A DNA stretch of 64,000 nucleotides from a virus (taxonomy: Duplodnaviria > Caudoviricetes): the IMG/VR virus record IMGVR_UViG_3300035661_000004; one strand, given 5' to 3'. The first letter of the stretch is position 1; each line of letters opens with the position of its first letter. The translations under genes and the position numbers were made by a program. The notes beneath the pieces were generated by a model. It was not told where the DNA came from. It did not search any database and worked only from the letters and a program-made list of their open reading frames with translations. This document shows, in pieces, positions 2,716 to 28,115 of this stretch.

Positions 2716-2721
2716 TCTTAT

Positions 2722-5437: not shown

Positions 5438-5712
5438 GGCCCGCTTCGCAAGGCTTTCGCCAGCTTATCGCATGCGGCGTTATACTGGCCGAGCTCCGTT
5501 TGCCAGTAGTCCTGGTCGCTCCACTGCCCGGTGTAGCTCGGCACCTTGGCTTGAGCTTGCCGGAGCTGGATGCGAGCCTGCAGCATCTCGCAGACTGCGT
5601 CCGCGATGGCGTGAGCCCCAGGCTCTTGAGGCTCGGGAGCCTTGCCGCCGAACGCGACGTATGGCGGGCTCGAAAGGTCGGCGAAGATCTCGGTGAACAG
5701 ATTGTCTCTCAT
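5434..5712 (-). CDS. Hypothetical protein
   Basis: 92-aa ORF; the A of its ATG is the terminal A of the tRNA-Leu CCA. Confidence 0.6.
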   Translation of the reverse strand: MRDNLFTEIFADLSSPPYVAFGGKAPEPQEPGAHAIADAVCEMLQARIQLRQAQAKVPSYTGQWSDQDYWQTELGQYNAACDKLAKALRSGP

Positions 5713-5798
5713 GGTGCGCCCGGCCGGACTCGAACCGGCACGCCACTGCTGGCGTCAGGACCTAAACCTGGTGTGTCTACCAATTTCACCACGGGCGC
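5712..5798 (-). tRNA. tRNA-Leu (UAG)
   Basis: GCGCCCG/CGGGCGC acceptor, loop TT-TAG-GT, long variable arm, TTCGAGT T-loop, A73, encoded CCA. Confidence 0.95.
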
Positions 5799-5977
5799 GC
5801 TTTTGGAAAGTCCTGTGTCAAGCCCAGGCTTTCGCCATATACGTAAGCCCAACCATCTTTCCTGGACAGTATAAAAGATGAGTTCTCTATTGTGTGATCA
5901 TATGCATAGCTTGCGCTACATGATAGCCTCCATCGGCTGGTTACTCATCGGTTGCGTCGATGGGATGACGTGCTTGC

Positions 5978-6202
5978 TCAACCAGCTCGAGGATCTTTAA
6001 CCTTGCTGGCTTCAGGTAATGCTTGAACGTACGGCCGCTTGCTGAGCTCGTCGAGCGCTGTGTGGCTCTGGTGCTTCAGCACCAGCGGGTTGGTCTCAGC
6101 GTCAACGACGATGCTGAACAGCTCGTTCCCGAGCAGGGACTCGGCCATCAGGACCAGGTCCGCTTCAGGGAGAACCAACAACGCCTCTTTGAACGAGCTC
6201 AT
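5978..6202 (-). CDS. Hypothetical protein
   Basis: 74-aa ORF, ATGA overlap upstream. Confidence 0.6.
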   Translation of the reverse strand: MSSFKEALLVLPEADLVLMAESLLGNELFSIVVDAETNPLVLKHQSHTALDELSKRPYVQALPEASKVKDPRAG

Positions 6203-6498
6203 GCGACCACCAGAATCTTGGCCTTGCTGAGCTGTGGCAGGCGGATCACGGTGTCGAGCGTGGGCTTCAGCAGCCAGCTCTTGACGGTGCCGTCATGCTT
6301 CTTGTCAACATGGCTGACATAGAACGAGGCCTCCTCGCCCGAGCCTGTCGAGATGACGTGCATGCCTTCATCGGCGGTGCGGTCATTGACAGGCTCGAAG
6401 ATCGGGAGGCCTCGAGCGGCGTGCTGCAGGACGCCAGCACGTGTTACCAGCATACCCAAGTGCTTGCTGAAGTTGAACAGGTTGCTTGGGTATTGCAT
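6199..6498 (-). CDS. Hypothetical protein
   Basis: 99 aa from MQYPSN, downstream of the promoter at 6531-6558. Confidence 0.6.
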   Translation of the reverse strand: MQYPSNLFNFSKHLGMLVTRAGVLQHAARGLPIFEPVNDRTADEGMHVISTGSGEEASFYVSHVDKKHDGTVKSWLLKPTLDTVIRLPQLSKAKILVVA

Positions 6499-6530
6499 GG
6501 CAGTCTCGCTGTTTGGGATTCGGTAGGATG

Positions 6531-6558
6531 ATTGTATCACAAAGCCAAGCCTTGTAAA
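6531..6558 (-). promoter_or_regulatory. Sigma70-like phage promoter TTTACA-N16-TACAAT
   Basis: Direct motif match; same consensus recurs more than a dozen times in the window. Confidence 0.7.
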
Positions 6559-6578
6559 CACATCATCCAGGCCGAAGC

Positions 6579-7001
6579 TTACTTCAGCGATTCCAGCAGG
6601 GCCTGCAGGTCCTCGACGGACATGTCGTTGATGGCGTTGGCCTTCTTGTCGTCGATGGCCTTCATCACCAGCTGGCGCTGAGCGGCGCGAGCGGCGGCGT
6701 TGGCGGCGGCCGTGCGTTCGGTCGAGATGACGTCGATGACGTACTTGACGACCTCGAGCTTCAGCGGCGTGACGACGTCAGCCGGCTTGGCGCTGGCCGT
6801 GACGAAGCTGGTCGGCTCGTCATTGTCGGCCTTGGCCTTGCGGAACAGAGACTTGGCGATGTCGTCCAGGTTGGCCTTGCCGGTGCCCGAGGTCAGCGGC
6901 AGGTCCCACAGGTCCTCGATGGCCAGCGCGCCCTTCGGCGTGTCGAAGCGCCACTTCTGGCGGGAGGCCTGCAGCAGCAGGTTGTCGATGTTGGTTGTCA
7001 T
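6579..7001 (-). CDS. Conserved-looking phage hypothetical protein
   Basis: 140 aa, strong GC3 coding bias, AAGGAAG RBS. Confidence 0.75.
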   Translation of the reverse strand: MTTNIDNLLLQASRQKWRFDTPKGALAIEDLWDLPLTSGTGKANLDDIAKSLFRKAKADNDEPTSFVTASAKPADVVTPLKLEVVKYVIDVISTERTAAANAAARAAQRQLVMKAIDDKKANAINDMSVEDLQALLESLK

Positions 7002-7033
7002 GATGTGCTTCCTTTCAGTGTTGCACGGGTGGA

Positions 7034-9115
7034 TCAGAATGCGACTCGGATGACGCGGTTGAGAGCGCCCTTGACACGCACGACCACGGTGTCGCGTACC
7101 GTGGACGAGAAGCCCAGGCCCGACAGCTGTTCGGACGCCTTGGCGACCTTCAGCTTGGAGCCGACCATCTCCAGGACCTTGCGGTGCTTGTTCAGCTCCG
7201 GGGTCAGGAACTCGTTGTAGAAGCCACGGGCGGTGCCGTCATTGGCACAGCCTTGCAGCATGAAGAAGTAGTGCTTGTTGCCGGCGCCCTTCTGGTCATC
7301 CCAGTGGTTCGGTGACAGCATCACGACGTTGACTTGCTGGAAGGTCTGGGTCTTCAGGCCCCAGACATCCTTCGTCGTGCTCGTGCTCGGCAGCGACTCG
7401 ATGATCGTGAAGCCGTCCTTCTTCGAGTACTTGATCTTCGCCACGGTCAGGTTCGACCGAGACGGGATCGCGCGATCGTAGTAGATCGTCGTGGTCACGC
7501 CGTCGAACTCGATGTCGACGCCGAAGCCCTTGCCGTCCGTCGACCGCTTGACGAAGTTGTTGATGAACAGCTCGTAGACGCCTTCTTTCATGCGGTTGCG
7601 GTTGGCGTAGTAGATGTTCTCGCACGGCTCGTTCTTCATGCCGTCAACGCCGTTGGCGTCCAGGTCCAGCTCGCCACCGCACGGAGACAGGCTACGGCCA
7701 CCCTTCAGCCGGTAGCTGCCGTAGTAGATCTCGGAGCCGCCCGGCTCGACCATGTGGAAATCCAGGTCATCGGTGTAGTCCCAGGCCAGGCGGCAGCACA
7801 GCTCGCCGACCACTTGGCCGCCGGCGCTCTTAACACGTTCCTTGATCGAGTCCGTCACGTCGCCGGTGTAGGACCAGCTGAAGGAGTTGTCCCAAGCAAA
7901 CAGCTTGCCAGCCGTCGGGTCGGTTGGAGCGATCAGGCTGACCAGGCGGTTGGTGTGCTTGTTCTCCAACAGCAGCTCGATCGACTTGGCCGTCGGCAGG
8001 ATGTCCTTCAGGAACTTCTCGATGCCCACCTCCTCGATCTTGTCGAAGGACCTGGTCGAGACCTTGGCGTCACCCACCAGGTCATCGAACACGTCGCCGG
8101 TCATGGTCGCCTTGGCGTCGCGGTTGGCGAACAACACGTTGTTGACCGTGATGTCCGTCAGGACTGCGAAGCGGCGTTCCAGGGCCGAGACCAAGCCCAG
8201 CTTCTGCAGCTCGCCCTTGGCCTTCTCGATCATGCCCTTGGTAACCAGCGCCGTCGGACGCTTGTAGTTCTGCGGGGCGGTCTTGGACTCGTAGATCTTG
8301 ACGGCGTCATCCAGCTCCTTCATGGCCAAGTCCTCGACCAACGTGCCGATGACCGAAGTGCGGAAGCCGCACAGTGCGCCTGCTGCCTTGAACTTGGTCC
8401 AGGCGAAGAGCGCTTGTCGGTCAGCCGACAGCTTGTCGAAAGCGGCCTTCAGCTCACGGAAGGAGGTGACGGCGCCCTTGAACTGGTCACCGCGGTAGAT
8501 CGAGCCCTGCGTGATCAGCTCCAGCACCGCGTCGATGTTCTCGATGCTCAGGTCGGTCAGGCTGCGGTGCAGGGAGTCACGGGCCGAGCGGTCTTCGCTC
8601 AGCTTGGTCGCGACATGGTCCTTGCCCACCACGTAAGCGCGCGGGATGTTGACGAAGAAGTGATCCCAGGCTTGCTGACCGCCGTTGACCAGCTGCTCGA
8701 AGCTGCGGTCGGTGCCGGCCTTGTCCAGGTAGTGCAGGAACACGTCGCCGATGGCGTGAGCCTTGACGGTCGCGGACAGCGCGTTGGCAACAGTTTGGTA
8801 AGCCGGCTCCTTGGCGGCGATGTCGATGTCCCAGATGGACGTGAGCGAGCCGTCGGCGTTGATCGTCACGACGTCGCCAACGTCACGGATGAAGTGGCGG
8901 CAGCAGGTACAGTCGTGCTCCGTGCGCTCACGGTACATCGGGTTGGTGCCTTCCGGGAAGGCGCCCAAGTAGGTGTTCCAGAGCAGGTCGCTCTTGGCAC
9001 CGGTCTCATCCTTCGGGATGCTGACGCGGAACAGAGCGGCGTTGTTGGCCGTCATCTCCGCGAAGCGCTTCTGGATCGCCTTCTTGAAGACGTTGAAGTT
9101 CAGCACGTGGGTCAT
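7034..9115 (-). CDS. Large phage protein with C-terminal YfaP/DUF2135-like domain
   Basis: 693 aa; LAWDYTDDLDFHMVEPGG...GELDLDAN...ENIYY resembles the YfaP-type signature; promoter TTTACA-N17-TACTAT upstream. Confidence 0.7.
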   Translation of the reverse strand: MTHVLNFNVFKKAIQKRFAEMTANNAALFRVSIPKDETGAKSDLLWNTYLGAFPEGTNPMYRERTEHDCTCCRHFIRDVGDVVTINADGSLTSIWDIDIAAKEPAYQTVANALSATVKAHAIGDVFLHYLDKAGTDRSFEQLVNGGQQAWDHFFVNIPRAYVVGKDHVATKLSEDRSARDSLHRSLTDLSIENIDAVLELITQGSIYRGDQFKGAVTSFRELKAAFDKLSADRQALFAWTKFKAAGALCGFRTSVIGTLVEDLAMKELDDAVKIYESKTAPQNYKRPTALVTKGMIEKAKGELQKLGLVSALERRFAVLTDITVNNVLFANRDAKATMTGDVFDDLVGDAKVSTRSFDKIEEVGIEKFLKDILPTAKSIELLLENKHTNRLVSLIAPTDPTAGKLFAWDNSFSWSYTGDVTDSIKERVKSAGGQVVGELCCRLAWDYTDDLDFHMVEPGGSEIYYGSYRLKGGRSLSPCGGELDLDANGVDGMKNEPCENIYYANRNRMKEGVYELFINNFVKRSTDGKGFGVDIEFDGVTTTIYYDRAIPSRSNLTVAKIKYSKKDGFTIIESLPSTSTTKDVWGLKTQTFQQVNVVMLSPNHWDDQKGAGNKHYFFMLQGCANDGTARGFYNEFLTPELNKHRKVLEMVGSKLKVAKASEQLSGLGFSSTVRDTVVVRVKGALNRVIRVAF

Positions 9116-9182
9116 CGGGATTTCCTTTCCTATTGTGGTCTAGATAGTAACACCTGCCAAGCAAGTTGTAAACAAAAAGTTG

Positions 9183-9355
9183 TCAGGCTTTGATGATGTA
9201 GCCGAAGTGGGTGAGGACGACGAAGGCGGCGAGCCCGGTCAACGCCCGAAGGCTACCTTGAGGATGAGGTTGAACGGGTCGCTGCGGTTCCAGATCACCA
9301 TGAGGAAGCCGAACATCACGAAGCTGAGGCAGAGGTAGAGGGACAGGAGGCTCAT
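9183..9355 (-). pseudogene. Frameshifted two-TM small membrane protein
   Basis: MSLLSLYLCLSFVMFGFLMVIWNRSDPFNLILKVAFG joins ALTGLAAFVVLTHFGYIIKA if one G is added to the GGG run at 9245-9247. Confidence 0.55.
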
Positions 9356-9357
9356 GA

Positions 9358-9624
9358 TCACACCATGTGGTTGAAAGCGTGTTCCAGGATGTCGCGCGCG
9401 TTTTGCGACACGCTCGGTTGCTCGGACTCCTCGCCAGAGCAAAGCTCCTCCAAAGCGTGCCGAGGCATGGCAGAGAGCTCCTTGTCGACGTCAGCGATGA
9501 CCTTCGAGTCAAACTTGAGGCGTACAACGCCCCACATCTTGTCCAGGACCTTGCTCTCGGGCATGGACCTATTGACGCAGCCATTGTCGTAGGCGATCTC
9601 GAGAAATGCAAATTGGAGGCTCAT
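9358..9624 (-). CDS. Hypothetical protein
   Basis: 88 aa, AAGGAG RBS, promoter at 9661-9690. Confidence 0.7.
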   Translation of the reverse strand: MSLQFAFLEIAYDNGCVNRSMPESKVLDKMWGVVRLKFDSKVIADVDKELSAMPRHALEELCSGEESEQPSVSQNARDILEHAFNHMV

Positions 9625-9660
9625 GCCGTCTCCTTAAGTATCACTGTTGTCGATAAGATG

Positions 9661-9690
9661 ATTGTACACCCATTCGGACCGTGATGTAAA
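9661..9690 (-). promoter_or_regulatory. Sigma70-like promoter TTTACA-N18-TACAAT with conserved leader cassette
   Basis: Followed by CATCTTATCG...GATACTTAAGGAG, near-identical to the leader at 11618-11682. Confidence 0.7.
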
Positions 9691-9696
9691 CGGCTT

Positions 9697-9972
9697 TCAG
9701 CTCTTTGGAGCTACGTTCCGCTTGCCGGTGAAGCCTTCAGCCGCGGCGCGTGCCGCACGGTCCAAGGAGTTCTGGTAGTCCTGACCGGTGGCTTGCCGCA
9801 GCTCGGTCAAGCGGTCGCCAAGCTCCTTGGCCTCCTTGACCTCGACATCGGTCAAGCGGCCACCCAGGGCCTTGAGGACCAGCAGCGCGTCCTTCTTGCT
9901 CAAGGTGAAGGACCAGCGCGGGATGTAGGACACCTCGGGTGCTGGGTTGATCTCGTCAAAGTCTTGGCTCAT
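9697..9972 (-). CDS. Hypothetical protein
   Basis: 91 aa with AAGGAG RBS. Confidence 0.7.
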   Translation of the reverse strand: MSQDFDEINPAPEVSYIPRWSFTLSKKDALLVLKALGGRLTDVEVKEAKELGDRLTELRQATGQDYQNSLDRAARAAAEGFTGKRNVAPKS

Positions 9973-10184
9973 GGTGTTGCTCCTTTAGCAAGCAAAGCGA
10001 TCAAAAAGCTCAGCAGGGCGACGCAGCCCAAGAGCAGGGCGATGCCTGCATGGCGCCCGTTCAGGCGCTTGAGAGCCGTGTTGAGTCGGTCATACACAGG
10101 TCCGTCGAGAGCATCGAAGGTGATCAGGCCCATGGCAAGGAGGGAGAAGGCGGTGATAGCGCCGCAGGCTTGGTAGATCATCAT
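9969..10184 (-). CDS. Small two-TM membrane protein
   Basis: 71 aa from MMIYQAC, AAGGAG RBS, two hydrophobic stretches. Confidence 0.6.
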   Translation of the reverse strand: MMIYQACGAITAFSLLAMGLITFDALDGPVYDRLNTALKRLNGRHAGIALLLGCVALLSFLIALLAKGATP

Positions 10185-10422
10185 GAGCTCCTTGTTTGGG
10201 TGAGCGTGAGCGCGGGAGTGCTCTGAATGTCCAGCTCCTCCCGCACGGTGTTGCCGCTGTAGGTGACATGACACGGCCGAGTTGGACCTGGAAGCCGACA
10301 CGTTTGAAGGAGCCAGCTAAAGCCTCGGCCTCCTCGCGCTGGTCCATGGAGTATTCCAGCTTGAGCTGAACCAGGTCTACGAGAGCGTGAACAACGTACG
10401 TGATGCGGTGGGTGTTGTTCAT
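10181..10422 (-). pseudogene. Frameshifted hypothetical protein
   Basis: MNNTHR...VQLGR continues as HVTYSGNTVREELDIQ...TRSS-stop after a one-base gap near 10271; the restored stop makes an ATGA overlap with the next gene. Confidence 0.5.
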
Positions 10423-11041
10423 TTTGCCCTCTTCAGAGCCTTGGCAAGCTCATCAGCGTAGATCGGCTTGGTGACGCCTTTCAGGCGAGCGCGCTCGACT
10501 ACCCGGCTGGCCGCTTGGTGAGGCGTGAGCCAGTTACGACCGTCGAACACGTGGTCGCCCGCCGGCTTGTTGCCAAGCTTGCGAGCCTCGGCCAGCTGCC
10601 GGCGGGCGGTCGGGTCCCGCCGCACCTCGGCTTCGGTCTTGCCTGACTTTGCCGCAGCTGCGTCATGAGCTTGCGCTCATGCTTGTTCATGACATGCTTG
10701 GTCGGAGCCGCATTGGCCTTACGCTCGCTCACGAAAGACTTTAGCTCCAAAGTCGGAGCGCGCATGACCCTGAAGCTCCAGTCTAGCGCCCTGAGCTCAG
10801 CAGCCGCTGTGGGAACAGGATCGTACCCGACTGGATACATGCGGCTTTGGTCACCGCACTCGATGCTAAGGAAGCCTGTCTTGTAGGCCTCCCAGGTCAT
10901 CGTCAAGGTGTCGCCGGCGTTGACCACTGTGACCTTGACTGTCCGCGCTTTGACTCGTTTGAAGGTCAGCTCATGGCCATCATCGATGCAGGCTTGCTGC
11001 ATGATGAGGAGAGCTCGTCGCATGTCAGACGAATTGCTCAT
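10419..11041 (-). pseudogene. Frameshifted hypothetical protein (ORFs 10499..11041 and 10419..10625 are one gene)
   Basis: ...KHERKLMT joins AAAKSGKTEAEVRRDPTARR with one added base near 10660. Confidence 0.55.
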
Positions 11042-11042
11042 G

Positions 11043-11276
11043 CTACTTCCTGCGCCGACGAGCGCGCTTGCGCTTCGGCTTAGGGACCAGATCTGAGAGC
11101 GTTGCTTGTCGCTCGATGTAGTACTGCCGGCGAGCCAGCCGCAGCTCTTCAGTGACTTGGCCGATCATGCGCGAAGCACAGTCACGGGAGCAAGCTTTTT
11201 GGAACTCGCGCGCCGGCGTGAAGGTGTGGCCGCAGCCGCCCCGGTTAGAGGCACAGCAGATGGATGAGTAGGTCAT
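11043..11276 (-). CDS. Small Cys-containing basic protein
   Basis: From MTYSSICC, ATGA overlap; CC...C...C-x3-C pattern and Arg/Lys tail. Confidence 0.55.
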   Translation of the reverse strand: MTYSSICCASNRGGCGHTFTPAREFQKACSRDCASRMIGQVTEELRLARRQYYIERQATLSDLVPKPKRKRARRRRK

Positions 11277-11617
11277 ACCAGCTCCGCAAAGCCAAACGGC
11301 TTGCACTCGTAGGCGCGGCCGTTGACCTCGATCACGTCACCGACGGACATCGAGGTGTGGTTCAGCTCCTTGCTCGTGATTAGCTCGCGGGCTTCGCCGT
11401 TCGGGGACCAGCATTCACCTTGGAGAGAGCCGAAGATAGCTTCGAGGTGGGTTTCGGCGATGGAGCCCAACAGCACGTGCGTTGCCTCCAGGTTCTTCGG
11501 GTCAACCTTGACCTCGCCGAAGGTGATGTAGCGGGCGACCGCGGGCTTGTAGTACCAGACCTTCGTGGCGCCTGCATGCAGGGCGCAAAGGTTGGAATCA
11601 TTGAGCGATTTGAGCAT
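11273..11617 (-). CDS. YodL-like domain protein
   Basis: HTSMSVGDVI motif near the C-terminus; GGAG RBS; promoter at 11654-11682. Confidence 0.55.
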   Translation of the reverse strand: MLKSLNDSNLCALHAGATKVWYYKPAVARYITFGEVKVDPKNLEATHVLLGSIAETHLEAIFGSLQGECWSPNGEARELITSKELNHTSMSVGDVIEVNGRAYECKPFGFAELV

Positions 11618-11653
11618 CTTGCATCTCCAAGTATCACTGTTGCCGATATGATG

Positions 11654-11682
11654 ATTGTACACCAGTACGGCCTCCGTGTAAA
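11654..11682 (-). promoter_or_regulatory. Sigma70-like promoter TTTACA-N17-TACAAT
   Basis: Direct motif match. Confidence 0.75.
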
Positions 11683-11701
11683 CACTCGAGAGACAAAAAG
11701 A

Positions 11702-11797
11702 TGGCGGAAGGCTGAGTACTCGAAACCCATCCCGCTTGTTGAGAGCGAGACCCTCGGATTAGCAATCCGGTCCAGGCACCTACCTGGTTAACCTTCC
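11702..11797 (-). tRNA. tRNA-Ser (GCU)
   Basis: GGAAGG acceptor start, loop TT-GCT-AA, long variable arm, G73, CCA. Confidence 0.92.
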
Positions 11798-11814
11798 ATG
11801 AATTCGCGCTTTAC

Positions 11815-12213
11815 TCAGTCGTGATGATCTTCGAGCGGGTCGTCGTAGAGCCGTACATGTAAGCGTGCGTCAGGCCGTTTGTACAGCACCTCCTCGGACA
11901 CAGCGCAACCTGTAGCCTCCTTCAGGTGGTTGAGCGTGTCGGGAGCGTCACGCAGCGTGATAAGCAAGCTTTGACCAGACGCGCGAAGCACCGTGCCGTA
12001 CTCTGCATTGATTAGCCTTGCGGCGGTTTCGGGCGAGTACTTTGCGTCAAGCCCAACACGGACAATGTACCGCTTTTCCTTGCCAAGTGCTTCTGCAGCT
12101 GGCTCTTGTTCTTCAGCCTTCTTGCCAAAGATTCGGTCCCACCCGCTACGGTAGGAGTCGGTAGTTGACTTGGACTTGAGGGCATCGCCGGTAATGTCGT
12201 TGTGTGCTATCAT
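11815..12213 (-). CDS. Hypothetical protein embedded in the tRNA array
   Basis: 132 aa, N-terminus NDITGD..KSK..YRSGWDRIFG; the A of its ATG is the terminal A of the tRNA-Ser(GGA) CCA. Confidence 0.7.
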   Translation of the reverse strand: MIAHNDITGDALKSKSTTDSYRSGWDRIFGKKAEEQEPAAEALGKEKRYIVRVGLDAKYSPETAARLINAEYGTVLRASGQSLLITLRDAPDTLNHLKEATGCAVSEEVLYKRPDARLHVRLYDDPLEDHHD

Positions 12214-12307
12214 GGCGGATAGTTGAGTACTCGAAACCCAATCCCTCGTTACCGAAGAATCCCACTGCTTTCCAAGCAGGTCCGGTCACCTAACCGGTTA
12301 ACTATCC
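12213..12307 (-). tRNA. tRNA-Ser (GGA)
   Basis: GGATAGT/ACTATCC acceptor, loop TT-GGA-AA, long variable arm, G73, CCA. Confidence 0.92.
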
Positions 12308-12310
12308 ATG

Positions 12311-12396
12311 TGTCCCGTACCGGACTCGAACCGGTACGCCTCTTCCGAGGCGGCAGAGTTTAAGCCTGCTGCGTCTACCAATTTCGCCAACGGGGC
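12311..12396 (-). tRNA. tRNA-Leu (UAA)
   Basis: Loop CT-TAA-AC, Leu-type D-loop TTGGTAGAC, long variable arm, A73; one acceptor mismatch; CCA not encoded. Confidence 0.9.
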
Positions 12397-12487
12397 GGTG
12401 GAAGACGGAGGACTTGAACCCCAAGCCACATCTCTGTGACTCCCACTGCTTTCGAAGCAGGTCCGGACCCTGTCCGGTTCATCTTCC
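12397..12487 (-). tRNA. tRNA-Ser (CGA)
   Basis: GGAAGAT/GTCTTCC acceptor, loop TT-CGA-AA, long variable arm; discriminator A rather than G; abuts the next tRNA. Confidence 0.9.
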
Positions 12488-12490
12488 GTA

Positions 12491-12635
12491 AGGTGACAGT
12501 AGGACTCGAACCTACGATGCATAGTCTGTCATGCTAGCTTATGCCATCGGTTCCTGCCATGGGCATGCGAGGGTGATAAGGCCTCTCCGTCTTGACTTGA
12601 CCGCGACGCTGTCTACCAATTTTCAGCATGTCACC
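12491..12635 (-). ncRNA. Oversized (145-nt) tRNA-like RNA with the anticodon arm replaced by a structured insert
   Basis: Perfect 7-bp GGTGACA/TGTCACC acceptor, Leu-like D-arm CTG-AAAATTGGTAGA-CAG, T-arm GTAGG-TTCGAGT-CCTAC, about 90 nt between D- and T-arms. Confidence 0.75.
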
Positions 12636-12636
12636 T

Positions 12637-12719
12637 TGGTGCCCTCGGCGGGACTCGAACCCGCAAAAATCTAGCATCTCAAGCTAGTAGCTGTACCAAT
12701 TTGCATTTATCACGAGGGC
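12637..12719 (-). tRNA. tRNA-Leu (GAG), short variable loop and irregular enlarged D-arm
   Basis: GCCCTCG/CGAGGGC acceptor, CTAGC-TTGAGAT-GCTAG anticodon arm, ATTTTT variable region, A73, CCA. Confidence 0.85.
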
Positions 12720-12767
12720 GTGATGTGTTTGCATTATATTACCTTTTCGGCCAAGGTGATATAAAGC

Positions 12768-12860
12768 GGCGGATGACAGAGGACTCGAACCCCAGCCCGG
12801 GTACTAGCCGAACCGTACCGCTTTCAAGGCGGCCCCGGACGCCCGCCCGGTTTATCATCC
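12768..12860 (-). tRNA. tRNA-Ser (UGA)
   Basis: GGATGAT/GTCATCC acceptor, GCCGC-CTTGAAA-GCGGT anticodon arm, long variable arm, G73. Confidence 0.92.
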
Positions 12861-13415
12861 GATGATGAGGTGCTGCAGCTTAGCTACAGCTTCGTTCCAA
12901 GAGGCCCCAATGACGCTGTCAGGAACCCTTACGCTAATGCACCACCGAGGCTCAGCCTCCACGTCAATGGAGTGCGGAACGTCCGTGCGCACGAGCGTAA
13001 GCTCTTGCTTGACCTCATGGCTGTCAATAAGCGTGAGCTCCGTCTTAGGCCATGAGAGGTAGTCTGTCTCGACCATGGTCAGGCTTGCGGCACCTGCTTT
13101 GCCCTCATGCCCTGTGTACCACAGCATCTTGCTCCCCTTGCCGCCTAGGACCCAGTTAAAAGCAAATGCTTTCGGCCTAGTCGGCGTGCTCATGTCGATG
13201 TGCGCGATGGGGCTTCGAGCCCAAGGCTGCTTGTAGAACAAGATAGCCTGGCAGACCGGCAGGCCGATCAAGGTCATCCAGCGTAACCAATCATCGGTGA
13301 AGATGTCGGTCAGCGTAGGGTCATAGATAGCCCAGGGCTTGGGGTCAGCGGGGAGCGTCCAACCAGGTCTTAGGGCGCCCGCTGTCGGGATAGTCAGTTC
13401 ATGCCAGCACTTCAT
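12855..13415 (-). CDS. Putative 2OG-Fe(II)/cupin-like protein, late
   Basis: 186 aa from MKCWHE; AHID...NWV...PHS...RWCISVR; TAAATA at 13421-13426; stop codon lies inside the 5' end of tRNA-Ser(UGA). Confidence 0.6.
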   Translation of the reverse strand: MKCWHELTIPTAGALRPGWTLPADPKPWAIYDPTLTDIFTDDWLRWMTLIGLPVCQAILFYKQPWARSPIAHIDMSTPTRPKAFAFNWVLGGKGSKMLWYTGHEGKAGAASLTMVETDYLSWPKTELTLIDSHEVKQELTLVRTDVPHSIDVEAEPRWCISVRVPDSVIGASWNEAVAKLQHLIIG

Positions 13416-13423
13416 GCTGGTAT

Positions 13424-13645
13424 TTAGTCGCCACCGTGCCTCGCGATCCGGACGATGTCCTGGCTGGTCACGATCCGGCACTTCGCTTCGATCTCAGCGA
13501 TGCGGCGCTTGGGAATGTCGTAGTGGTCCTTGTGGAACCAGCAGCGAGCGATGTTGAGCTCCTGCGCCATCAGGTGCAGGTTCTCGATTGAGTAGGGCAA
13601 GCAGATGAGGTGCCTTGCCTTATCGGTCAGGTACTCGAGCTTCAC
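13424..13645 (-). CDS. DUF4031-like small protein
   Basis: HL...ENLHLMAQELNIARCWFHKDHYDIP resembles the DUF4031 pattern. Confidence 0.6.
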   Translation of the reverse strand: MKLEYLTDKARHLICLPYSIENLHLMAQELNIARCWFHKDHYDIPKRRIAEIEAKCRIVTSQDIVRIARHGGD

Positions 13646-13932
13646 CGCTTGAAGTTTCGGATGGCGTCGGACAGCGGCCCGAGCTCTGCGATCTCTTGGT
13701 CCTTGCGGTGGAAGGTGCAGCTAGGTTGTGAGCGCTTCCGTCCCTTGACAACCGGGTACAGCACGACAACCGGCTGATCGCACCCTGTGCGGTGGCACTT
13801 GTAGGGTGTCAGTTCGGTGCTTGAGCCATGACCGATGCGAGCCTTGCTCTTGTGCGCAAAGATGCCGCAGCTTGGGCAGCGGTAGACGGCGCGGACGCCT
13901 TCGACCGGCTTGTAGTTGTGAACGCAGCTCAT
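13642..13932 (-). CDS. Cys/His-rich putative zinc-binding protein
   Basis: CxH, CPSC, CHRTGC, CxxH motifs. Confidence 0.6.
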   Translation of the reverse strand: MSCVHNYKPVEGVRAVYRCPSCGIFAHKSKARIGHGSSTELTPYKCHRTGCDQPVVVLYPVVKGRKRSQPSCTFHRKDQEIAELGPLSDAIRNFKR

Positions 13933-14186
13933 TGAATCACCTTGTCGGCGCCGGCTTCCGTGATGGTCGTAATGTAACCCATGCGGGCGATGCGCTCAGC
14001 GGCTTCGATGTAACTGGTGTAGTGGTAAGCGCAACCAATGAGTGGGCTTGCAAAGCAGATGAAGCCTCGCGCAGCAGAGTCCTCGCAGCCTGGGTAGGTC
14101 AGCGGTTGGCCGCGATGAATTCCTGCGACCGCGTTGAACACCTCGACGCCGTCTTTTGTGACTACAATTTGTGTCGGGAAGGTCAT
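13929..14186 (-). CDS. Hypothetical protein
   Basis: 85 aa, AGGAG RBS, promoter at 14223-14251. Confidence 0.65.
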   Translation of the reverse strand: MTFPTQIVVTKDGVEVFNAVAGIHRGQPLTYPGCEDSAARGFICFASPLIGCAYHYTSYIEAAERIARMGYITTITEAGADKVIQ

Positions 14187-14222
14187 GCTGTGCTCCTAAG
14201 TATCGGTTGGCAGAATGGAATG

Positions 14223-14251
14223 ATTGTACATCATCACGATCCGCTTGTAAA
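14223..14251 (-). promoter_or_regulatory. Sigma70-like promoter internal to the tRNA array
   Basis: TTTACA-N17-TACAAT starting 4 nt after the CCA of tRNA-Leu(CAA). Confidence 0.75.
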
Positions 14252-14255
14252 CACT

Positions 14256-14340
14256 TGGTGCGCCCGGTCGGACTCGAACCGACACGCCTTGCGGCAACAG
14301 ATTTTGAGTCTGCCGCGTCTACCCATTCCGCCACGGGCGC
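14256..14340 (-). tRNA. tRNA-Leu (CAA)
   Basis: GCGCCCG/CGGGCGC acceptor, loop CT-CAA-AA, long variable arm, A73, CCA. Confidence 0.95.
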
Positions 14341-14344
14341 GTGA

Positions 14345-14854
14345 CTAAGTACGTTTCTTAAAACCCCACGTTGGAGTTTGTGTGTGACAGTTGGGACAGA
14401 TCATGCGTAAGTTTTCACGCCGATTGTCCTTGTTATCACCATTAGCGTGATCAAGCTGAAACACTAAGGGCTTGCCATTCCAAGTTTGTCCAAGGCCGCA
14501 TTCTTTACAAATGCCGCCTTGCTCTAACAACACGCGCTCATGGAAGCAGCTCTTAGGAACTTCGTGCCATGGTGCATCTGTTAAGTGGTGCTGCCGTTTG
14601 TCTTTTGCAATACGTGCGGCCATTAAACCGCCCTTGATTCTATCTTCGCGCATCGGCCCTGCAGTAGGTCTTCCTGCTTGATAGCCAGCTCTCAATGTAG
14701 CACTGCTTCTAGCTCGATTTGCTAAGCATTGATTAGCGCTCTTGCAGCAAATGTACTTTCCACTTGCACTAATGAATAGGGCAGTTTGCCCACAGTCGTA
14801 AGCACACATGTGTGCCGTTGAAATTGGTGTAGCTGGTTTAGGTCCGCGTTTCAT
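14345..14854 (-). CDS. Free-standing HNH homing endonuclease
   Basis: C-terminal CKEC...LDHANGDNKDNRRENLRMICPNCH; AT-rich; TAAATA at 14861-14866. Confidence 0.88.
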   Translation of the reverse strand: MKRGPKPATPISTAHMCAYDCGQTALFISASGKYICCKSANQCLANRARSSATLRAGYQAGRPTAGPMREDRIKGGLMAARIAKDKRQHHLTDAPWHEVPKSCFHERVLLEQGGICKECGLGQTWNGKPLVFQLDHANGDNKDNRRENLRMICPNCHTQTPTWGFKKRT

Positions 14855-14866
14855 GCTGCCTATTTA

Positions 14867-14951
14867 GGTGCACACGGGGGAGACTTGAACTCCCAATCCC
14901 GAAGGCCACAGTGTCTGAGGCTGTGATGTATACCAATTCCATCACGTGTGC
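14867..14951 (-). tRNA. tRNA-Leu (CAG), copy 1
   Basis: GCACACG/CGTGTGC acceptor with one extra C in a C-run, loop CT-CAG-AC, variable arm with TTCG loop. Confidence 0.85.
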
Positions 14952-14954
14952 ATA

Positions 14955-15033
14955 TGGTGCCCTAGGCGGGACTCGAACCCGCAGAATTCCGCTTCTGAGG
15001 CGGACATGTTTACCAAGATTTCATCACCAGGGC
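14955..15033 (-). tRNA. tRNA-Leu (CAG), copy 2, short 5-nt variable loop
   Basis: GCCCTGG/CTAGGGC acceptor, TCCGC-CTCAGAA-GCGGA, variable region ATTCT, A73, CCA. Confidence 0.9.
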
Positions 15034-15037
15034 GGTG

Positions 15038-15120
15038 GGTGGAGGTAGAAGGAATCGAACCTTCATGACCGAAGTACCGGGGTTACAGTCCGGGCGCTCT
15101 CCATAGGCGTCTATACCTCC
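15038..15120 (-). tRNA. tRNA-Tyr (GUA), copy 1
   Basis: GGAGGTA/TACCTCC acceptor, loop CT-GTA-AC, long variable arm, A73. Confidence 0.88.
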
Positions 15121-15132
15121 AAGGGTCTTACG

Positions 15133-15215
15133 GGTGGATCAGGATAGGAGTCGAACCTACGTAGCTTTCGCGGGAGCCCAAACTGGCTCCTGGGCTCGTC
15201 TCACCCAGCTGATCC
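15133..15215 (-). ncRNA. tRNA-like RNA with a non-canonical anticodon loop
   Basis: GGATCAG/CTGATCC acceptor, GGG/CCC D-stem, GGAGCC-AGTTTG-GGCTCC arm (6- or 8-nt loop), GC-GAAA-GC variable hairpin, GTAGG-TTCGACT-CCTAT T-arm. Confidence 0.7.
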
Positions 15216-15223
15216 ATTACTTT

Positions 15224-15308
15224 TGGTGGGGCCGCAAGGAATCGAACCTTGTTGGTCAGGGACACCGGGTTTACAGGCCGGGCAGAAGCCATTACTGTCT
15301 ACGACCCC
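15224..15308 (-). tRNA. tRNA-Tyr (GUA), copy 2; first tRNA after the attenuator
   Basis: GGGGTCG/CGGCCCC acceptor, loop CT-GTA-AA, long variable arm, A73, CCA. Confidence 0.88.
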
Positions 15309-15348
15309 AAAAGTAAAGCGCGAATTGTTAAAGAGCGTCACACCAATG

Positions 15349-15385
15349 AGAAAAAGCCTCGGACCTTTCGGTCGGAGGCTTTTGC
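15349..15385 (-). terminator. Conditional intrinsic terminator (attenuator 3:4 hairpin)
   Basis: AAAAGCCTC-C-GACC-GAAA-GGTC-C-GAGGCTTTT then T, about 40 nt upstream of the first tRNA. Confidence 0.9.
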
Positions 15386-15410
15386 TAGGTGTGAAGGTAG
15401 AAGTTCTGTC

Positions 15411-15485
15411 TTACCCGATCATGCAAAAGCCTCCATCGCTATAAAGCGATGAGGAGCTCAAATATGATAGGGAGGTGTTCTTCAT
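15411..15485 (-). CDS. Attenuator leader peptide MKNTSLSYLSSSSLYSDGGFCMIG
   Basis: Translated by hand; ATG 9 nt after the -10 hexamer (leaderless); codons 5-16 are all Ser/Leu/Tyr; overlaps hairpin segments 1 and 2. Confidence 0.85.
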   Translation of the reverse strand: MKNTSLSYLSSSSLYSDGGFCMIG

Positions 15486-15494
15486 GATGGTAGA

Positions 15495-15523
15495 ATTGTA
15501 TTTACAGTCGAAGTCGTTGTAAA
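15495..15523 (-). promoter_or_regulatory. Sigma70-like promoter of the attenuated tRNA operon
   Basis: TTTACA-N17-TACAAT. Confidence 0.85.
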
Positions 15524-15555
15524 CCGGCTAAAGTGTAACAATCCTACTTGTACCG

Positions 15556-15747
15556 TTACTTGTTGTCCAACTTGGACTTAGCGAGAGCGGCCAGGCCGTT
15601 CGCTTCTTGAGCCCACTGCTCGAGCTTTGCTGGGTTACGCTTCAGCATCCAGCGGTAGAACCAGGCGCCGACTGCAGCGCCGACGAATGCGCCCACCAGG
15701 AACGGGTGGGTGAGGAAGTTAAGGATGAAGGTGAGGATGTCCCACAT
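15556..15747 (-). CDS. Small single-TM membrane protein, late
   Basis: 63 aa, hydrophobic N-terminal half; TAAATA at 15782-15787. Confidence 0.7.
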   Translation of the reverse strand: MWDILTFILNFLTHPFLVGAFVGAAVGAWFYRWMLKRNPAKLEQWAQEANGLAALAKSKLDNK

Positions 15748-16523: not shown

Positions 16524-17153
16524 TCAGCTCGTGATGAACTTCGGAGCCAAGTCACGGTACACGCGGCTGCGGTCCTTGTTGGCGATCCGTCCCAACAAGA
16601 AGGCCATCTGATCAGCCTGGATGTTGCGGTTGCGCATGATCATGGCTTCGGCCTTGCACGGGATGTACGGCAGGTAGAGCGGATCCATGGTCCGAGTGCC
16701 TTGCGGGCTGTACTGTCCATGCGGCAGCGGCTTGCCTGGCAGCAAGTCACCCTTCAGGTTGTTGCAGGCCTTGCAGGCCGTGACCACGTTCATCCACACG
16801 TCCGGGCCGCCCTTCGACACCGGCATGATGTGGTCACGAGTCAGGTCATGGCTCGTGAACAAGCCAGAGCAGTAGGCGCACATGTAGCGGTCACGCTGGA
16901 ACAGTGAGGAGTTCGTCAGCGCAGACGGCTTAACCCGCTTGACCGTTGACTCGCCCTTGATGACGATGATCGAAGCCGTCATCAGCTCGGACTGGGACTT
17001 GGTCACGGAGTTGTCACCACCACGGTAGGTGATGAGGTCATCGCCCAGGTGATCCAGGACTTGGCCCTTGGCTTCGCACATGATGGCCTCGTCACGGGTG
17101 ATCCACTCGTGAGGGGTCCAAGACTTGTCGAGTACCAGAACTTGATGCTGCAT
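16524..17153 (-). CDS. HNH endonuclease (McrA-like 5-methylcytosine HNH family pattern)
   Basis: LFQRDRYMCAYC...TRDHIMPVSKGG..W.NVVTACKACNNLKG; GAGGAG RBS. Confidence 0.88.
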   Translation of the reverse strand: MQHQVLVLDKSWTPHEWITRDEAIMCEAKGQVLDHLGDDLITYRGGDNSVTKSQSELMTASIIVIKGESTVKRVKPSALTNSSLFQRDRYMCAYCSGLFTSHDLTRDHIMPVSKGGPDVWMNVVTACKACNNLKGDLLPGKPLPHGQYSPQGTRTMDPLYLPYIPCKAEAMIMRNRNIQADQMAFLLGRIANKDRSRVYRDLAPKFITS

Positions 17154-22915: not shown

Positions 22916-24493
22916 TCAGAATGTAAACACGCCCCAGCCGATATCGATGCTGTTCTCAACCCTTGCGCCGTTGAGGGCCATGATGACATGCGGCACGCTG
23001 GTTTCACCGTCGCCGTCATCGATGTACATCGTCAGCTTGACCGTGCCGCCCCAAAGGTAGGAGGCATGCGCGATCACGTCATTGGCTTGCTCTTCGTTGA
23101 GGGGGCGGTTGTTGACAACGAAGTGCTTCAACCTTAGCACGTCATCGTCGTTTCCGATGACCTGGATGTCAGGCTTGTAGCGCGAGATGTGGTACTGTGC
23201 GGCCAGCTTAGCGCGCAGTTCACGGAAGGACTCAGGACGAGCCACCTCGGTGATTAGGTACTCTTCGTCATAGAGTCCGTGGTCACGGATCGCAAACATC
23301 TCGAGCTTCTTCGCTACCGACGGCGCCAAGAACTGCAGGATGAAGGTCTCATCGGTATAGTTCATCATGGCTTCTTGCAAGACATCCTGCCACGGTTGCC
23401 CCTTCAAGTGGCCGTGGTACGGCTCGTCATCGGGGTCCTTGCAGCCATCCTCGCAGGCAGCCTTGAGGGACATGAAGATCTCAAAGCCGAGCTTGTACGG
23501 GTTGAAGGCGGCTTGCGCACGCTGCGCGATGACGCCCGAGTGCATTCGGAAGAACTCATGCATCGAACCTTCGTCGATTAGGCCCTTGTCATACAGCCTG
23601 TTGAGGATGTAGTAGTGAGTGAAGGTAGCGTAGCCCTCATTCAGCACCTTGGTCTTGCGTTGTGGGTCAAAGTACTGAGCGATCATCCGGTTGATGCGGA
23701 TGAGCTCCTTCTTCCACGCTGGGATCTTGCCGTGCTTCTCGATGAAGTAGAGGAGGTTCTCTTGCGGCTCTGCGAGCAAGCCTTCTTCGTCATCCTCGGC
23801 AGGCGGTGCTTGGTCAGCCTTTGCCTTGTCGACCAAGCCTTTGCCGACCTTCTGCCACACAGCGTCATAGTCATACAGCTGCTGAGCAAAGCGCTCGATG
23901 GCCTTCTTCTCCTCTTGCTCAGAGTTCAGAGCGCGGTTCCGCTTAGCGCTGTCTGTGCCGTACAGGCTCAGTGCATGGCACGCGTCAAGCACCGCTTCGA
24001 CTTCGTCAACGCCGTAGCGCTCTTCGCACATCAAGATGTAACGGCGAGCGAAGCTCAGGTAGCTGACGATGCCCGCCGCGTCCGTGTAGTTCTTGAACAT
24101 GAAGTTGTTCTTGAAGACAGCGGAGTGGCCGATCGATGCGTGCGCGATGACCAACAGTTGGACCAACGCGTTGTTCTCCTCCATCAGGTAGGCGATGCAG
24201 GGATTCGAGTTGATGACGATCTCGTACGCCAGGCCCATGAGGCCCTTCTTGTAGTCTGCCTCCGACTTGACCAGCTCCTTGCCGTATGACCAGTGCGAGT
24301 ACCAGACCGGCAAGCCGCTTGAGGTATAAGCTTCGAGCATCTGTGCGGCCGAGACCACTTCAATCTGAGGCTCGTAGTAGGTCTGGCGCATGTCCTCTTG
24401 CGCGATGACCTTGCACTCCTCCCAGCAGCGTCGGAGGAGCTCTTCATTCCAGTCGGCGCCCGACGTGAACAGGAGCTTGCTATCTTCAGACAT
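22916..24493 (-). CDS. ycgB: SpoVR/YcgB family protein
   Basis: GLPVWYSHWSYGK, GLAYEIVINSNPCIAYLM.EN, HASIGHS.VFKNN, TKVLNEGYATFTH. Confidence 0.92.
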   Translation of the reverse strand: MSEDSKLLFTSGADWNEELLRRCWEECKVIAQEDMRQTYYEPQIEVVSAAQMLEAYTSSGLPVWYSHWSYGKELVKSEADYKKGLMGLAYEIVINSNPCIAYLMEENNALVQLLVIAHASIGHSAVFKNNFMFKNYTDAAGIVSYLSFARRYILMCEERYGVDEVEAVLDACHALSLYGTDSAKRNRALNSEQEEKKAIERFAQQLYDYDAVWQKVGKGLVDKAKADQAPPAEDDEEGLLAEPQENLLYFIEKHGKIPAWKKELIRINRMIAQYFDPQRKTKVLNEGYATFTHYYILNRLYDKGLIDEGSMHEFFRMHSGVIAQRAQAAFNPYKLGFEIFMSLKAACEDGCKDPDDEPYHGHLKGQPWQDVLQEAMMNYTDETFILQFLAPSVAKKLEMFAIRDHGLYDEEYLITEVARPESFRELRAKLAAQYHISRYKPDIQVIGNDDDVLRLKHFVVNNRPLNEEQANDVIAHASYLWGGTVKLTMYIDDGDGETSVPHVIMALNGARVENSIDIGWGVFTF

Positions 24494-24896
24494 TGGGACC
24501 CTCCTTGGGGCAGGCGAGATTGAGCTGAGCTTCGCTGATAGAGCCAGGCTCCATCACGATCTTGGTGTTCATCGTGGACTCTTGCACCGCATTTGAGTCG
24601 GCGTCATAAGCCACGAGGAACTTGATGGTAGAGGTGCGGGCCTTGCAGTCATGCTCAGTCCGCGAGACGTAGCTGGTCTTGTCGTCAAGGTTCTCGAGCA
24701 ACGTGAACGTAATGGGAACCTTACCGCCTCGAGCTACCGTGACGTGAGCCAAGAGGTTGTCCTTGCGAAGCTCGACGATGCCATTGCGAACGGTAGCTTG
24801 CGGAGCTGCAACGATCGGATGACTTTCAACATTGATGCTGGCCTCGCAGCCAACAAGGAGCGCTAGGCACCAAAGCCATACTGCGCGACGACGCAT
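24486..24896 (-). CDS. Putative lipoprotein
   Basis: Basic N-terminus, hydrophobic core, lipobox LVGC. Confidence 0.6.
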   Translation of the reverse strand: MRRRAVWLWCLALLVGCEASINVESHPIVAAPQATVRNGIVELRKDNLLAHVTVARGGKVPITFTLLENLDDKTSYVSRTEHDCKARTSTIKFLVAYDADSNAVQESTMNTKIVMEPGSISEAQLNLACPKEGPNV

Positions 24897-25072
24897 TGAA
24901 GTACCTCTTGGGCGTTGATGATCTCGTAATCGGACTTCTTAATCTCGTTGAGGTATGAAGCGAGCGGCTGTTCAGCTCCGAGCATCTTGCCGTTCTCGTC
25001 CCTGGGAACACAAGTGACAAGGGAGCGACCGAAGATGTGCTTGACGGTCAATGCGGTGAGTTGGATTTTCAT
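24863..25072 (-). CDS. Hypothetical protein
   Basis: 69 aa, ATGA overlap with the yeaH-like stop. Confidence 0.55.
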   Translation of the reverse strand: MKIQLTALTVKHIFGRSLVTCVPRDENGKMLGAEQPLASYLNEIKKSDYEIINAQEVLQCVVAQYGFGA

Positions 25073-26379: not shown

Positions 26380-26416
26380 GGTCTTCCTATTCCTCTGGTA
26401 TGATTGTATCTATTGC

Positions 26417-27085: not shown

Positions 27086-27461
27086 GCGCGAGTCCATTGT
27101 TCCAATTTTCGATTGCTGCTGTACGCGTGGGTCCTCGAGCTTCAACGTCACAGCCACCTTCTGGAAAGGAACAGCAGACAAGCCAAGTGCCGTCACGGCC
27201 AGCAGGGTAGGTAGTGTCAGAGAGGTCCTCGCTGGGCACACGCCCACAGTGCGAGCAGGGTGCGATCAGCTCAGCCTCAAGCTCGTCGAGCTCAGCGAGC
27301 AACGATTCTAGCTGGCTATTCATGCCCTCGAGCTGCAGTTCATGCAACCGAGGGTCTACGTCTTCTGGGCAGCTAGCTTGACAGTCGGCGATGGCTAGCT
27401 TGAAGCTCCTAGCCGCGTCAACGGTTAGGTAATGCCGGTCGTACTTTACATCTGAGTGCAT
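27021..27461 (-). CDS. Hypothetical protein with Lar-like zinc-binding C-terminal region
   Basis: From MHSDVKY; PCSHCG...C...C...AIENWN pattern; 3' end uncertain. Confidence 0.45.
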   Translation of the reverse strand: MHSDVKYDRHYLTVDAARSFKLAIADCQASCPEDVDPRLHELQLEGMNSQLESLLAELDELEAELIAPCSHCGRVPSEDLSDTTYPAGRDGTWLVCCSFPEGGCDVEARGPTRTAAIENWNNGLAHAQPPLDEAQSPRRNWRPNRG

Positions 27462-27637: not shown

Positions 27638-27674
27638 GGCGATCTCCTAAGACATTGCCAATTGTATCACATCC

Positions 27675-28111: not shown

Positions 28112-28115
28112 AGCT

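Follow-up and report, generated by a model that had tools for sequence, protein, structure and literature searches.

A probable leader-peptide attenuator ahead of the tyrosine, leucine and serine tRNA genes of an uncultured phage

The window analysed here, a 64,000-nucleotide (nt) stretch of viral DNA (Duplodnaviria; Caudoviricetes; IMG/VR record IMGVR_UViG_3300035661_000004), carries on its minus strand, around 15349-15523, a short leader located ahead of transfer RNA (tRNA) genes for tyrosine, leucine and serine. Judging from sequence comparison, it is rather likely that this leader acts as a ribosome-mediated (leader-peptide) transcription attenuator gating read-through into these phage Tyr/Leu/Ser tRNA genes. 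An attenuator had been proposed in a first-pass annotation of the same DNA, and the core of that proposal is supported by the comparison of seven leaders, all of which keep an open reading frame (ORF), its Ser/Leu/Tyr content, the complementarities of segments 2:3 and 3:4, and the promoter geometry. The elements of the leader locus are the following:

15556, minus strand: stop codon of a 63-amino-acid gene; the leader elements lie directly 3' of it
15534-15541, minus strand: TTGTTACA box, 10-11 nt 5' of the -35 hexamer, present in 7/7 leader homologues
15523-15495, minus strand: sigma-70-type promoter TTTACA-N17-TACAAT, from the promoter scan
15485-15411, minus strand: leader ORF of 24 codons plus TAA, encoding MKNTSLSYLSSSSLYSDGGFCMIG, from translation and homologue comparison
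15473-15438, minus strand: run of 12 Ser/Leu/Tyr codons (codons 5-16), from the six-frame run scan
15473-15450, minus strand: likely control codons (codons 5-12), which are Ser/Leu/Tyr in 7/7 leaders
15454-15430, minus strand: hairpin 1:2, CCTCATCGCT / loop TTAT / AGCGATGGAGG, from folding
15434-15423, minus strand: segment 2, GGAGGCTTTTGC, the 5' strand of the putative antiterminator, coding for Gly-Gly-Phe-Cys
15416-15395, minus strand: spacer hairpin in the antiterminator loop, holding the stop codon, predicted in 7/7 leaders
15385-15345, minus strand: predicted intrinsic terminator (segments 3 and 4), from folding and pair counts
15394-15338, minus strand: outer helix around the terminator, UCACACC (15394-15388) / GGUGUGA (15344-15338), from folding
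15337-15325, minus strand: post-terminator motif CGCTCTTTAACA(A), conserved between the terminator and the first tRNA, with a single occurrence in the window

The central elements named in the first-pass annotation were recovered: the promoter by the promoter scan, the ORF with its 12 consecutive Ser/Leu/Tyr codons, and the 12-bp antiterminator, in which segment 2 is perfectly complementary over 12 nt to GCAAAAGCCTCC (15385-15374), the 5' arm of the terminator. Two of the proposed structures needed amendment. Helix 1:2, placed originally at 15454-15431, is present, but it extends to 15430 and is imperfect, consisting of 7 base pairs (bp), a bulged G and 3 bp; it is weaker in two homologues, and in the predicted fold it is the inner portion of a hairpin, long and imperfect, that extends over the ORF and keeps segment 2 paired. 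The GAAA-capped terminator with its U-tract is likewise present, with the stem AAAAGCCUC-C-GACC / GGUC-C-GAGGCUUUU, a GAAA loop and the U-tract UUUUUCUCAUU, but the stem contains a conserved internal C.C mismatch, because of which a simple terminator scan of the window did not list it. The terminator hairpin is followed by TTTTTCTCATT / UCUCAUU, ending near 15345. The 156-nt leader as a whole has an RNAfold z-score of -6.3 against shuffled sequences.

The source of the window is a large uncultured phage, with related contigs of up to 201 kb in metagenomes of sediments and microbial mats. Six further distinct leaders, L001 (identical to L015), L004, L005, L007, L016 and L022, were found in related uncultured phages, recovered only via searches with the neighbouring proteins, and each of them is located directly 3' of an orthologue of the 63-amino-acid gene. 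The peptides encoded by the seven leaders of the comparative set are:

Window: MKNTSLSYLSSSSLYSDGGFCMIG
L001: MKNFSLSYLSSSSLYSDGGFCMIG
L007: MKNFSLSYLSSSLYSDGGFCMNG
L005: MKNTSLSLLSYSSLYAMGGFCMIGK
L004: MKNFSLSLLSYSSLYLSDGGFCA
L022: MKNFSLSSLSYSSLYLSSAGGFCA
L016: MNNFSLSSLSYSSQYLSSDGGFCA

The promoter-proximal ORF has 23-25 codons in 7/7 leaders, with the ATG and the position of the stop codon kept. Insertions and deletions within the ORF are in frame (-3, +3 and +6 nt), whereas those in the spacer are not multiples of 3; in L005, the loss of one base is compensated by the gain of another seven bases away, so that the frame is kept. Neither of the other two frames is open or has a conserved start in any of the seven. 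Many of the changes in the ORF are synonymous (TCA/TCT/TCG, CTA/TTA, TTG/TTA, CTT/CTG and AGC/AGT), the inserted codons are Leu and Ser, and the runs of Ser/Leu/Tyr codons are 11-14 codons long, that of L016 being 9+4, interrupted by one Gln.

The conservation of the amino-acid set is most evident at codons 5-12, which remain Ser/Leu/Tyr in 7/7 leaders despite differences at up to 8 of their 24 nt. All three amino acids of the set are found at codon 8 and two of them, Ser and Tyr, at codon 11, the replacements requiring two- or three-base changes. When random substitutions were simulated, all eight codons stayed within the set in 0.07-0.4% of cases for the lineages compared with the window, and in up to 1.8% for closer pairs of leaders. 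Only two changes leave the set, Gln at codon 14 (L016) and Ala at codon 16 (L005); both lie 3' of codon 12, where segment 2 would in any case be covered by a stalled ribosome. It was among the refuting outcomes listed in the first-pass annotation that the Ser/Leu/Tyr bias might not be conserved in homologous leaders; it is conserved. This pattern points to selection for the Ser/Leu/Tyr set rather than for the peptide. At the same time, the particular serine string AGC-TCC-TCA-TCG, to which importance had been attached earlier, is not conserved among the homologues.

Ser, Leu and Tyr together make up 21.4% of the window codons in six-frame translation. The 12 codons of the leader are the longest Ser/Leu/Tyr run in the six frames, the second longest having 7, and 0.0009 runs of at least 12 are expected; in approximately 195 kb examined, Ser/Leu/Tyr runs of at least 9 are confined to the leader homologues. 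Runs of at least 12 are attained somewhere in the window by about 15 further three-amino-acid sets as well, so the weight of the run rests on its match to the downstream tRNA set and on its conservation. The codons are not those most used by the phage: the Tyr codon of the leaders is always TAT, which accounts for 23% of the Tyr codons in the window genes, and the Leu codons in the first part of the leaders, CTA, TTA and TTG, account for 6%, 2% and 14% of Leu use.

The downstream genes to which the run corresponds begin with a tRNA-Tyr at the position given in the first-pass annotation (15308), and the corresponding features are:

15308-15224, minus strand: tRNA-Tyr (ARAGORN)
15308-14867, minus strand: first tRNA cluster under the proposed gating, comprising a tRNA-Tyr, a tRNA-like element, a tRNA-Tyr and two tRNA-Leu(CAG) (ARAGORN/Rfam)
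14251-14223, minus strand: internal promoter (promoter scan)

All tRNA genes detected in the window (5712-15308, minus strand) are specific for Tyr, Leu or Ser, that is, of the class with a long variable arm. The same restriction was found by ARAGORN for the tRNA genes that follow the leader in five homologues, including those at 8422-10178 in L004, 817-1149 in L005, approximately 560-1200 in L015 and 2952-3474 in L016. The L022 contig ends 85 bases after the terminator, and its available part matches the start of the tRNA-like element of L004. The earlier suggestion that the serine string holds one codon for each tRNA-Ser of the array stands in part: ARAGORN detected the tRNA-Ser with anticodon GCU at the default threshold and those with UGA and CGA at the relaxed one, while the GGA species is unconfirmed.

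The conservation of the leader RNA is uneven, as is seen from the mean pairwise identities among the seven sequences:

63-amino-acid gene: 0.65
Promoter region: 0.77
5' part of the ORF: 0.79
Segment 2: 0.96
Spacer: 0.65
Terminator: 0.94
Post-terminator motif CGCTCTTTAACA: 0.91

In segment 2, which encodes the GGFC codons, the synonymous sites are frozen across the homologues, indicating a constraint at the RNA level. In the seven-sequence alignment, every cell of the terminator helix 3:4 is paired, with a GAAA or GCAA loop and one compensatory A-U to G-C pair in L016/L022. The antiterminator helix 2:3 has 12-13 bp, with 95% of cells paired and nine of 12 pairs invariant; its end pair is C-G, U-A (L001) or U-G (L007). 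The A-to-G change in segment 3 of L016/L022 is accompanied by a U-to-C change of its partner in segment 4 and still allows a G.U pair with segment 2. For helix 1:2, 81% of cells are paired and the 5' arm is variable. The spacer hairpin is predicted in all seven leaders, including the L004/L016/L022 clade, in which the spacer sequence is unrelated. A further pairing drawn by RNAalifold, between UGAAGA at the start codon and UCUUUA in the post-terminator motif, was rejected, as both sides are invariant and the sole change (L016) is uncompensated.

Folding predictions gave -20 to -24 kcal/mol for the terminator alone and -21 to -28 kcal/mol for helix 2:3 with the spacer hairpin. In the free RNA, the minimum consists of the ORF hairpin plus the terminator, which beats the forced-2:3 fold by 0.8-10.8 kcal/mol. 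ORF nt 1-45 were then held single-stranded, to mimic the masking by a ribosome that stalls at codons 5-12; under this constraint, the antiterminator fold won by 0.7-3.9 kcal/mol in five of the seven leaders. By these models, the two states, terminator and antiterminator, differ by a few kcal/mol only and are close to isoenergetic. In the trp system, the ribosome reaches approximately 13-15 nt past its A site. The likely control codons occupy ORF nt 13-36, and segment 2 starts at nt 49-58 and lies within nt 49-69 across the leaders; with an assumed reach of 13-15 nt, a stall at codons 5-12 would open the ORF hairpin and leave segment 2 free. The stop codon is located 3-12 nt past segment 2, in the spacer hairpin, and a ribosome on it, with the same reach, would mask the 3' half of segment 2.

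No Shine-Dalgarno sequence was found ahead of the leader ATG, either in the window or in the homologues. The distance from the -10 hexamer to the ATG is 9 nt in the window and 9-10 nt across the seven leaders, in which ATCATG is invariant; this spacing and this invariance suggest that transcription starts on the ATG itself or on the A located three bases 5' of it. The leader mRNA is thus probably leaderless or provided with a 5' untranslated region of approximately 3 nt (AUCAUG). Since two other phage genes have their ATG 5-6 nt after a CTAAATA box (14867 and 13427), leaderless mRNAs may be normal in this phage.

We infer the transcription start, the translation of the ORF, the termination and the logic of stalling, which would be combined as follows. 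Transcription would begin 0-3 nt 5' of the AUG at the early-type promoter, and a ribosome would load on the leaderless or nearly leaderless 5' end. With quick decoding of codons 5-12, the ribosome would cross segment 2 and reach the stop codon, which lies in the spacer hairpin; with segment 2 covered, segments 3 and 4 would pair and the RNA polymerase would terminate at the U-tract. In a ribosome-free leader, the ORF would fold on itself and sequester segment 2, leading to termination too. A shortage of any needed Ser, Leu or Tyr tRNA, or its lack of charging, would stall the ribosome in codons 5-12, holding the ORF hairpin open and segment 2 exposed. Before segment 4 exists, segment 2 could then form 12-13 bp with segment 3, a helix to which the spacer hairpin would lend stability. 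Once 2:3 is formed, the polymerase would continue into tRNA-Tyr, tRNA-Leu and beyond. As the tRNA output would relieve the stall, the phage would in this scheme regulate its own tRNA supply by negative feedback.

Several observations count against this reading or limit its reach. The comparative set is small, comprising only seven sequences including that of the window, four of them closely related, and covariation is sparse, that of helix 2:3 being confined to one end pair and not significant against shuffles (156/500; seven sequences). The antiterminator of L016 and L022 contains a bulge or a G.U pair and, at equilibrium, loses to the terminator by 1.0-3.4 kcal/mol even with the ORF masked; the later transcription of segment 4 could still let it form before the terminator. 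The U-tract is interrupted in the same two leaders (UUCUUCUC). The Ser/Leu bias could partly stem from the pyrimidine-rich strand needed for pairing with GGAGG. Selection on the read-through RNA for a purpose unrelated to switching is evident from the outer helix and the invariant post-terminator motif. The internal promoter at 14251, noted already in the first-pass annotation (14223-14251) and recovered in the promoter scan, and the CTAAATA boxes at 14867 and 13427 could express the distal tRNAs independently, so that strict gating would be limited to the first tRNA cluster. Finally, one metatranscriptome contig covers the spacer, the terminator and tRNA-Tyr; it could be DNA carry-over, and such contigs cannot show starts, ends or expression.

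The same structures would also be expected if a real terminator/antiterminator switch responded to something other than particular codons, such as the general translation capacity or a leader-binding phage or host protein, with the Ser/Leu/Tyr content being secondary. The alternative pairings and their conservation do not by themselves identify what is sensed, and the conserved TTGTTACA box and post-terminator motif hint at further factors. We regard this as unlikely, however, since membership of the set survives radical amino-acid swaps exactly where stalling would free segment 2, and since this set is the downstream tRNA set detected in the window and in the homologues (the early end of the L022 contig being the limit there).

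A fairly improbable alternative is a structured 5' leader or small RNA (sRNA) that does not switch, in which hairpins would serve RNase III or RNase E processing or stability, or a trans-acting sRNA of approximately 140 nt would be released, the ORF being untranslated. The strong conservation at the RNA level would be accounted for in this way, as would the lack of a Shine-Dalgarno sequence and the outer helix, which is formable in the read-through RNA only and in which a compensatory change has turned U-A into A-U in L016; sRNAs derived from attenuators are also known (PMC6614838). The maintenance of the frame despite 3- and 6-nt indels and a frameshift that is compensated, together with the conserved ATG and stop position, is difficult to reconcile with an untranslated ORF, as is a variation that is either synonymous or within the Ser/Leu/Tyr set, and the conserved 12-nt complementarity between segment 2 and the terminator arm would have no role in pure processing.

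That the ORF is an ordinary small early gene with its own leaky terminator, the peptide being the functional product, is quite unlikely. The ORF and its C-terminal GGFC motif are indeed conserved; at the same time, an interchange of Tyr, Leu and Ser at one position is atypical of purifying selection on a peptide, the frozen synonymous sites of GGFC point to the RNA, the C-terminus varies (MIG, MNG, MIGK or A), and in L005 Ser-Asp is replaced by Ala-Met with the nucleotides kept. A chance juxtaposition of promoter, ORF and terminator is scarcely credible: in the six-frame translation of the window, some three-amino-acid set does reach a 12-codon run about 15 times, but all of the elements are kept in seven phages whose flanking gene is merely 65% identical, and Ser/Leu/Tyr runs of at least 9 occur at these leaders alone in 195 kb. 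Of these alternatives, the first three each leave unexplained either the conservation of frame and set or that of the 2:3 complementarity.

As to what the proposed attenuator would respond to, the first-pass annotation had suggested the cleavage or uncharging of host tRNAs. The sensor might poll nearly all Ser/Leu/Tyr isoacceptors (class II) and induce replacement tRNAs against a class II-specific nuclease, whether a host defence or part of the phage's host shut-off; we hold this possible, with considerable doubt. Cleavage of host class II tRNAs by a defence nuclease as the trigger is speculation, and a simple feedback control of the phage tRNA supply fits equally well. As far as the sequence shows, the natural trigger could be a defence nuclease, a phage-induced loss of host tRNA or amino-acid limitation.

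Other features of the locus concern its promoters and possible processing sites. The promoter scan of the window listed 8 sites against 2.8 expected, and the leader promoter is one of four on the same strand sharing identical hexamers; the TTGTTACA box, which may be an operator or an UP-like element, was not found at the window's three other TTTACA-N17-TACAAT promoters. In the homologues, the hexamers (with TACAAT or TAGAAT as the -10) and the 17-nt spacing are kept, and the sequence of the promoter spacer diverges. The CTAAATA box, likely a phage-specific promoter giving leaderless mRNAs, recurs 5' of coding-strand genes at 33660, 16511, 15788, 14867 and 13427 (minus strand). The late motifs that had been placed at 14861 and 13421 are such boxes and not the T4-type TATAAATA, which is absent from the window; in L004, L016 and L022, the T4-type TATAAATA overlaps the -10 hexamer of the leader promoter. 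The outer helix is a candidate RNase III-type processing hairpin, and the post-terminator motif CGCTCTTTAACA(A) is possibly a processing site.

Odd tRNA-like elements lie between the tRNAs at 15215-15133, 12719-12637 and 12307-12213 in the window and at 8422-8508 in L004, where the leader is followed first by a tRNA-like RNA that has the shape of class II and, by our reading, a Tyr anticodon loop. No tRNA cloverleaf was detected within 15349-15523 by ARAGORN, relaxed thresholds included, or by Rfam. L001 and L015 come from sister samples and have identical leaders; comparison of L001 11160-11330 with L015 ~520-1200 revealed that a stretch of tRNA genes, approximately 650 nt long and flanked by two copies of tRNA-Tyr, is missing from L001, which suggests a deletion by recombination between the repeated tRNA-Tyr genes. 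A second attenuator was looked for 5' of the isolated tRNA-Leu(UAG) at 5798, and none was found. HNH endonuclease genes are located inside the tRNA array (14345-14854, minus strand) and just 5' of the leader region (16524-17153, minus strand), the latter being kept in the relatives. The phage also carries rIIA/rIIB, PrkA/DUF444/SpoVR, helicase and ligase genes and a transfer-messenger RNA (tmRNA); the PrkA/DUF444/SpoVR trio is at 22916-30047 in the window, and the tmRNA, of betaproteobacterial type by Rfam, is at 2412-2741 (minus strand) in the window and at 13797-14200 in L004.

Searches beyond the seven leaders yielded no additional member. Four more distant relatives of the 63-amino-acid gene (L018-L021) have neither tRNAs nor a leader. 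Among the INPHARED phages, there was no match by blastn of the locus or tblastn of the neighbouring 227-amino-acid protein, and neither the protein scan nor the DNA-pattern scans of IMG/VR gave a further leader; the pattern matches L008 and L009 were due to chance. The terminator pattern retrieved only unrelated terminators (L010-L013) from the JGI metagenome contigs and had no match in the GTDB genomes, where the ORF-start pattern gave 13 matches, all chance and none with a Ser/Leu/Tyr run. No RNA dataset was listed as a match for a 5-kb query of the locus; wastewater RNA-seq runs with small shares of the locus carry L007-like relatives. In 11400-15600, the Rfam Trp, His, Leu and Thr leader families and the T-box had no match at E up to 1, and only weak, sub-threshold matches to unrelated families overlap the leader.

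It is of interest to compare the proposed attenuator with known systems. Phage tRNA sets can replace host tRNAs and so counter tRNA-targeting defences or host tRNA loss, to which the present set is similar; in these sources, as far as they were searched (PMC10264068, PMC12445682, PMC13056530), neither demand-regulated expression of phage tRNAs nor arrays with long-variable-arm tRNAs only are described. The papers on bacterial Schlafen proteins deal with broad, not class II-specific, tRNA cleavage. In a limited full-text search of the literature, no attenuator of tRNA genes and no class II-only phage tRNA array was described. If confirmed, the proposed attenuator would mean that phage tRNA supply can be controlled by demand and need not be constitutive, and it would serve as a small natural reporter of how well Ser, Leu and Tyr codons can be decoded. 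It would also sharpen the question of why this lineage carries long-variable-arm tRNAs only, pointing to a tRNA attack directed at class II; were the leader a true sensor of class II depletion, these would be the first tRNA genes under leader-peptide attenuation.

T-box riboswitches are similar in that tRNA charging is sensed through a choice between terminator and antiterminator, but they bind the tRNA directly and need no ribosome, and their features are absent from the phage leader (no Rfam match). In the pheST operon, the pheM leader attenuator controls phenylalanyl-tRNA synthetase by the supply of charged tRNA. The phage leader would resemble it as leader-peptide attenuation of a component of the translation apparatus, whereas the output of pheST is a synthetase protein, a single amino acid is sensed, and the system is chromosomal. 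The enterobacterial trp, his, leu, thr, ilvGMEDA and pheA operons are governed by leader-peptide attenuators, that of leu preferring less-used codons. Like these, the phage leader has a short ORF close to the promoter that contains a series of regulatory codons, pairings 1:2, 2:3 and 3:4 that exclude one another, a predicted intrinsic terminator ahead of the regulated genes and a preference for less-used codons. Unlike them, it is viral, its regulated products would be tRNAs and not biosynthetic enzymes, it would read three amino acids and approximately eight isoacceptor families at once, its mRNA is apparently leaderless without a Shine-Dalgarno sequence, and its stop codon lies 3' of segment 2. 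The design principles of leader-peptide attenuators have been discussed elsewhere (PMC1183508). The leaderless polycysteine short ORFs of mycobacteria (bioRxiv 10.1101/834739), which act as cysteine-responsive attenuators, are also located at the 5' end of an operon and sense charged tRNA by their codons, but their targets belong to cysteine metabolism and one amino acid is read; the likeness is that of codon sensors. In concept, these ORFs and the pheST attenuator come nearest to the phage leader among described systems. If confirmed, the phage leader would extend leader-peptide attenuation, known for amino-acid operons and one synthetase operon, to an output of tRNA genes, to a virus and to a multi-amino-acid sensor set by tRNA structural class.

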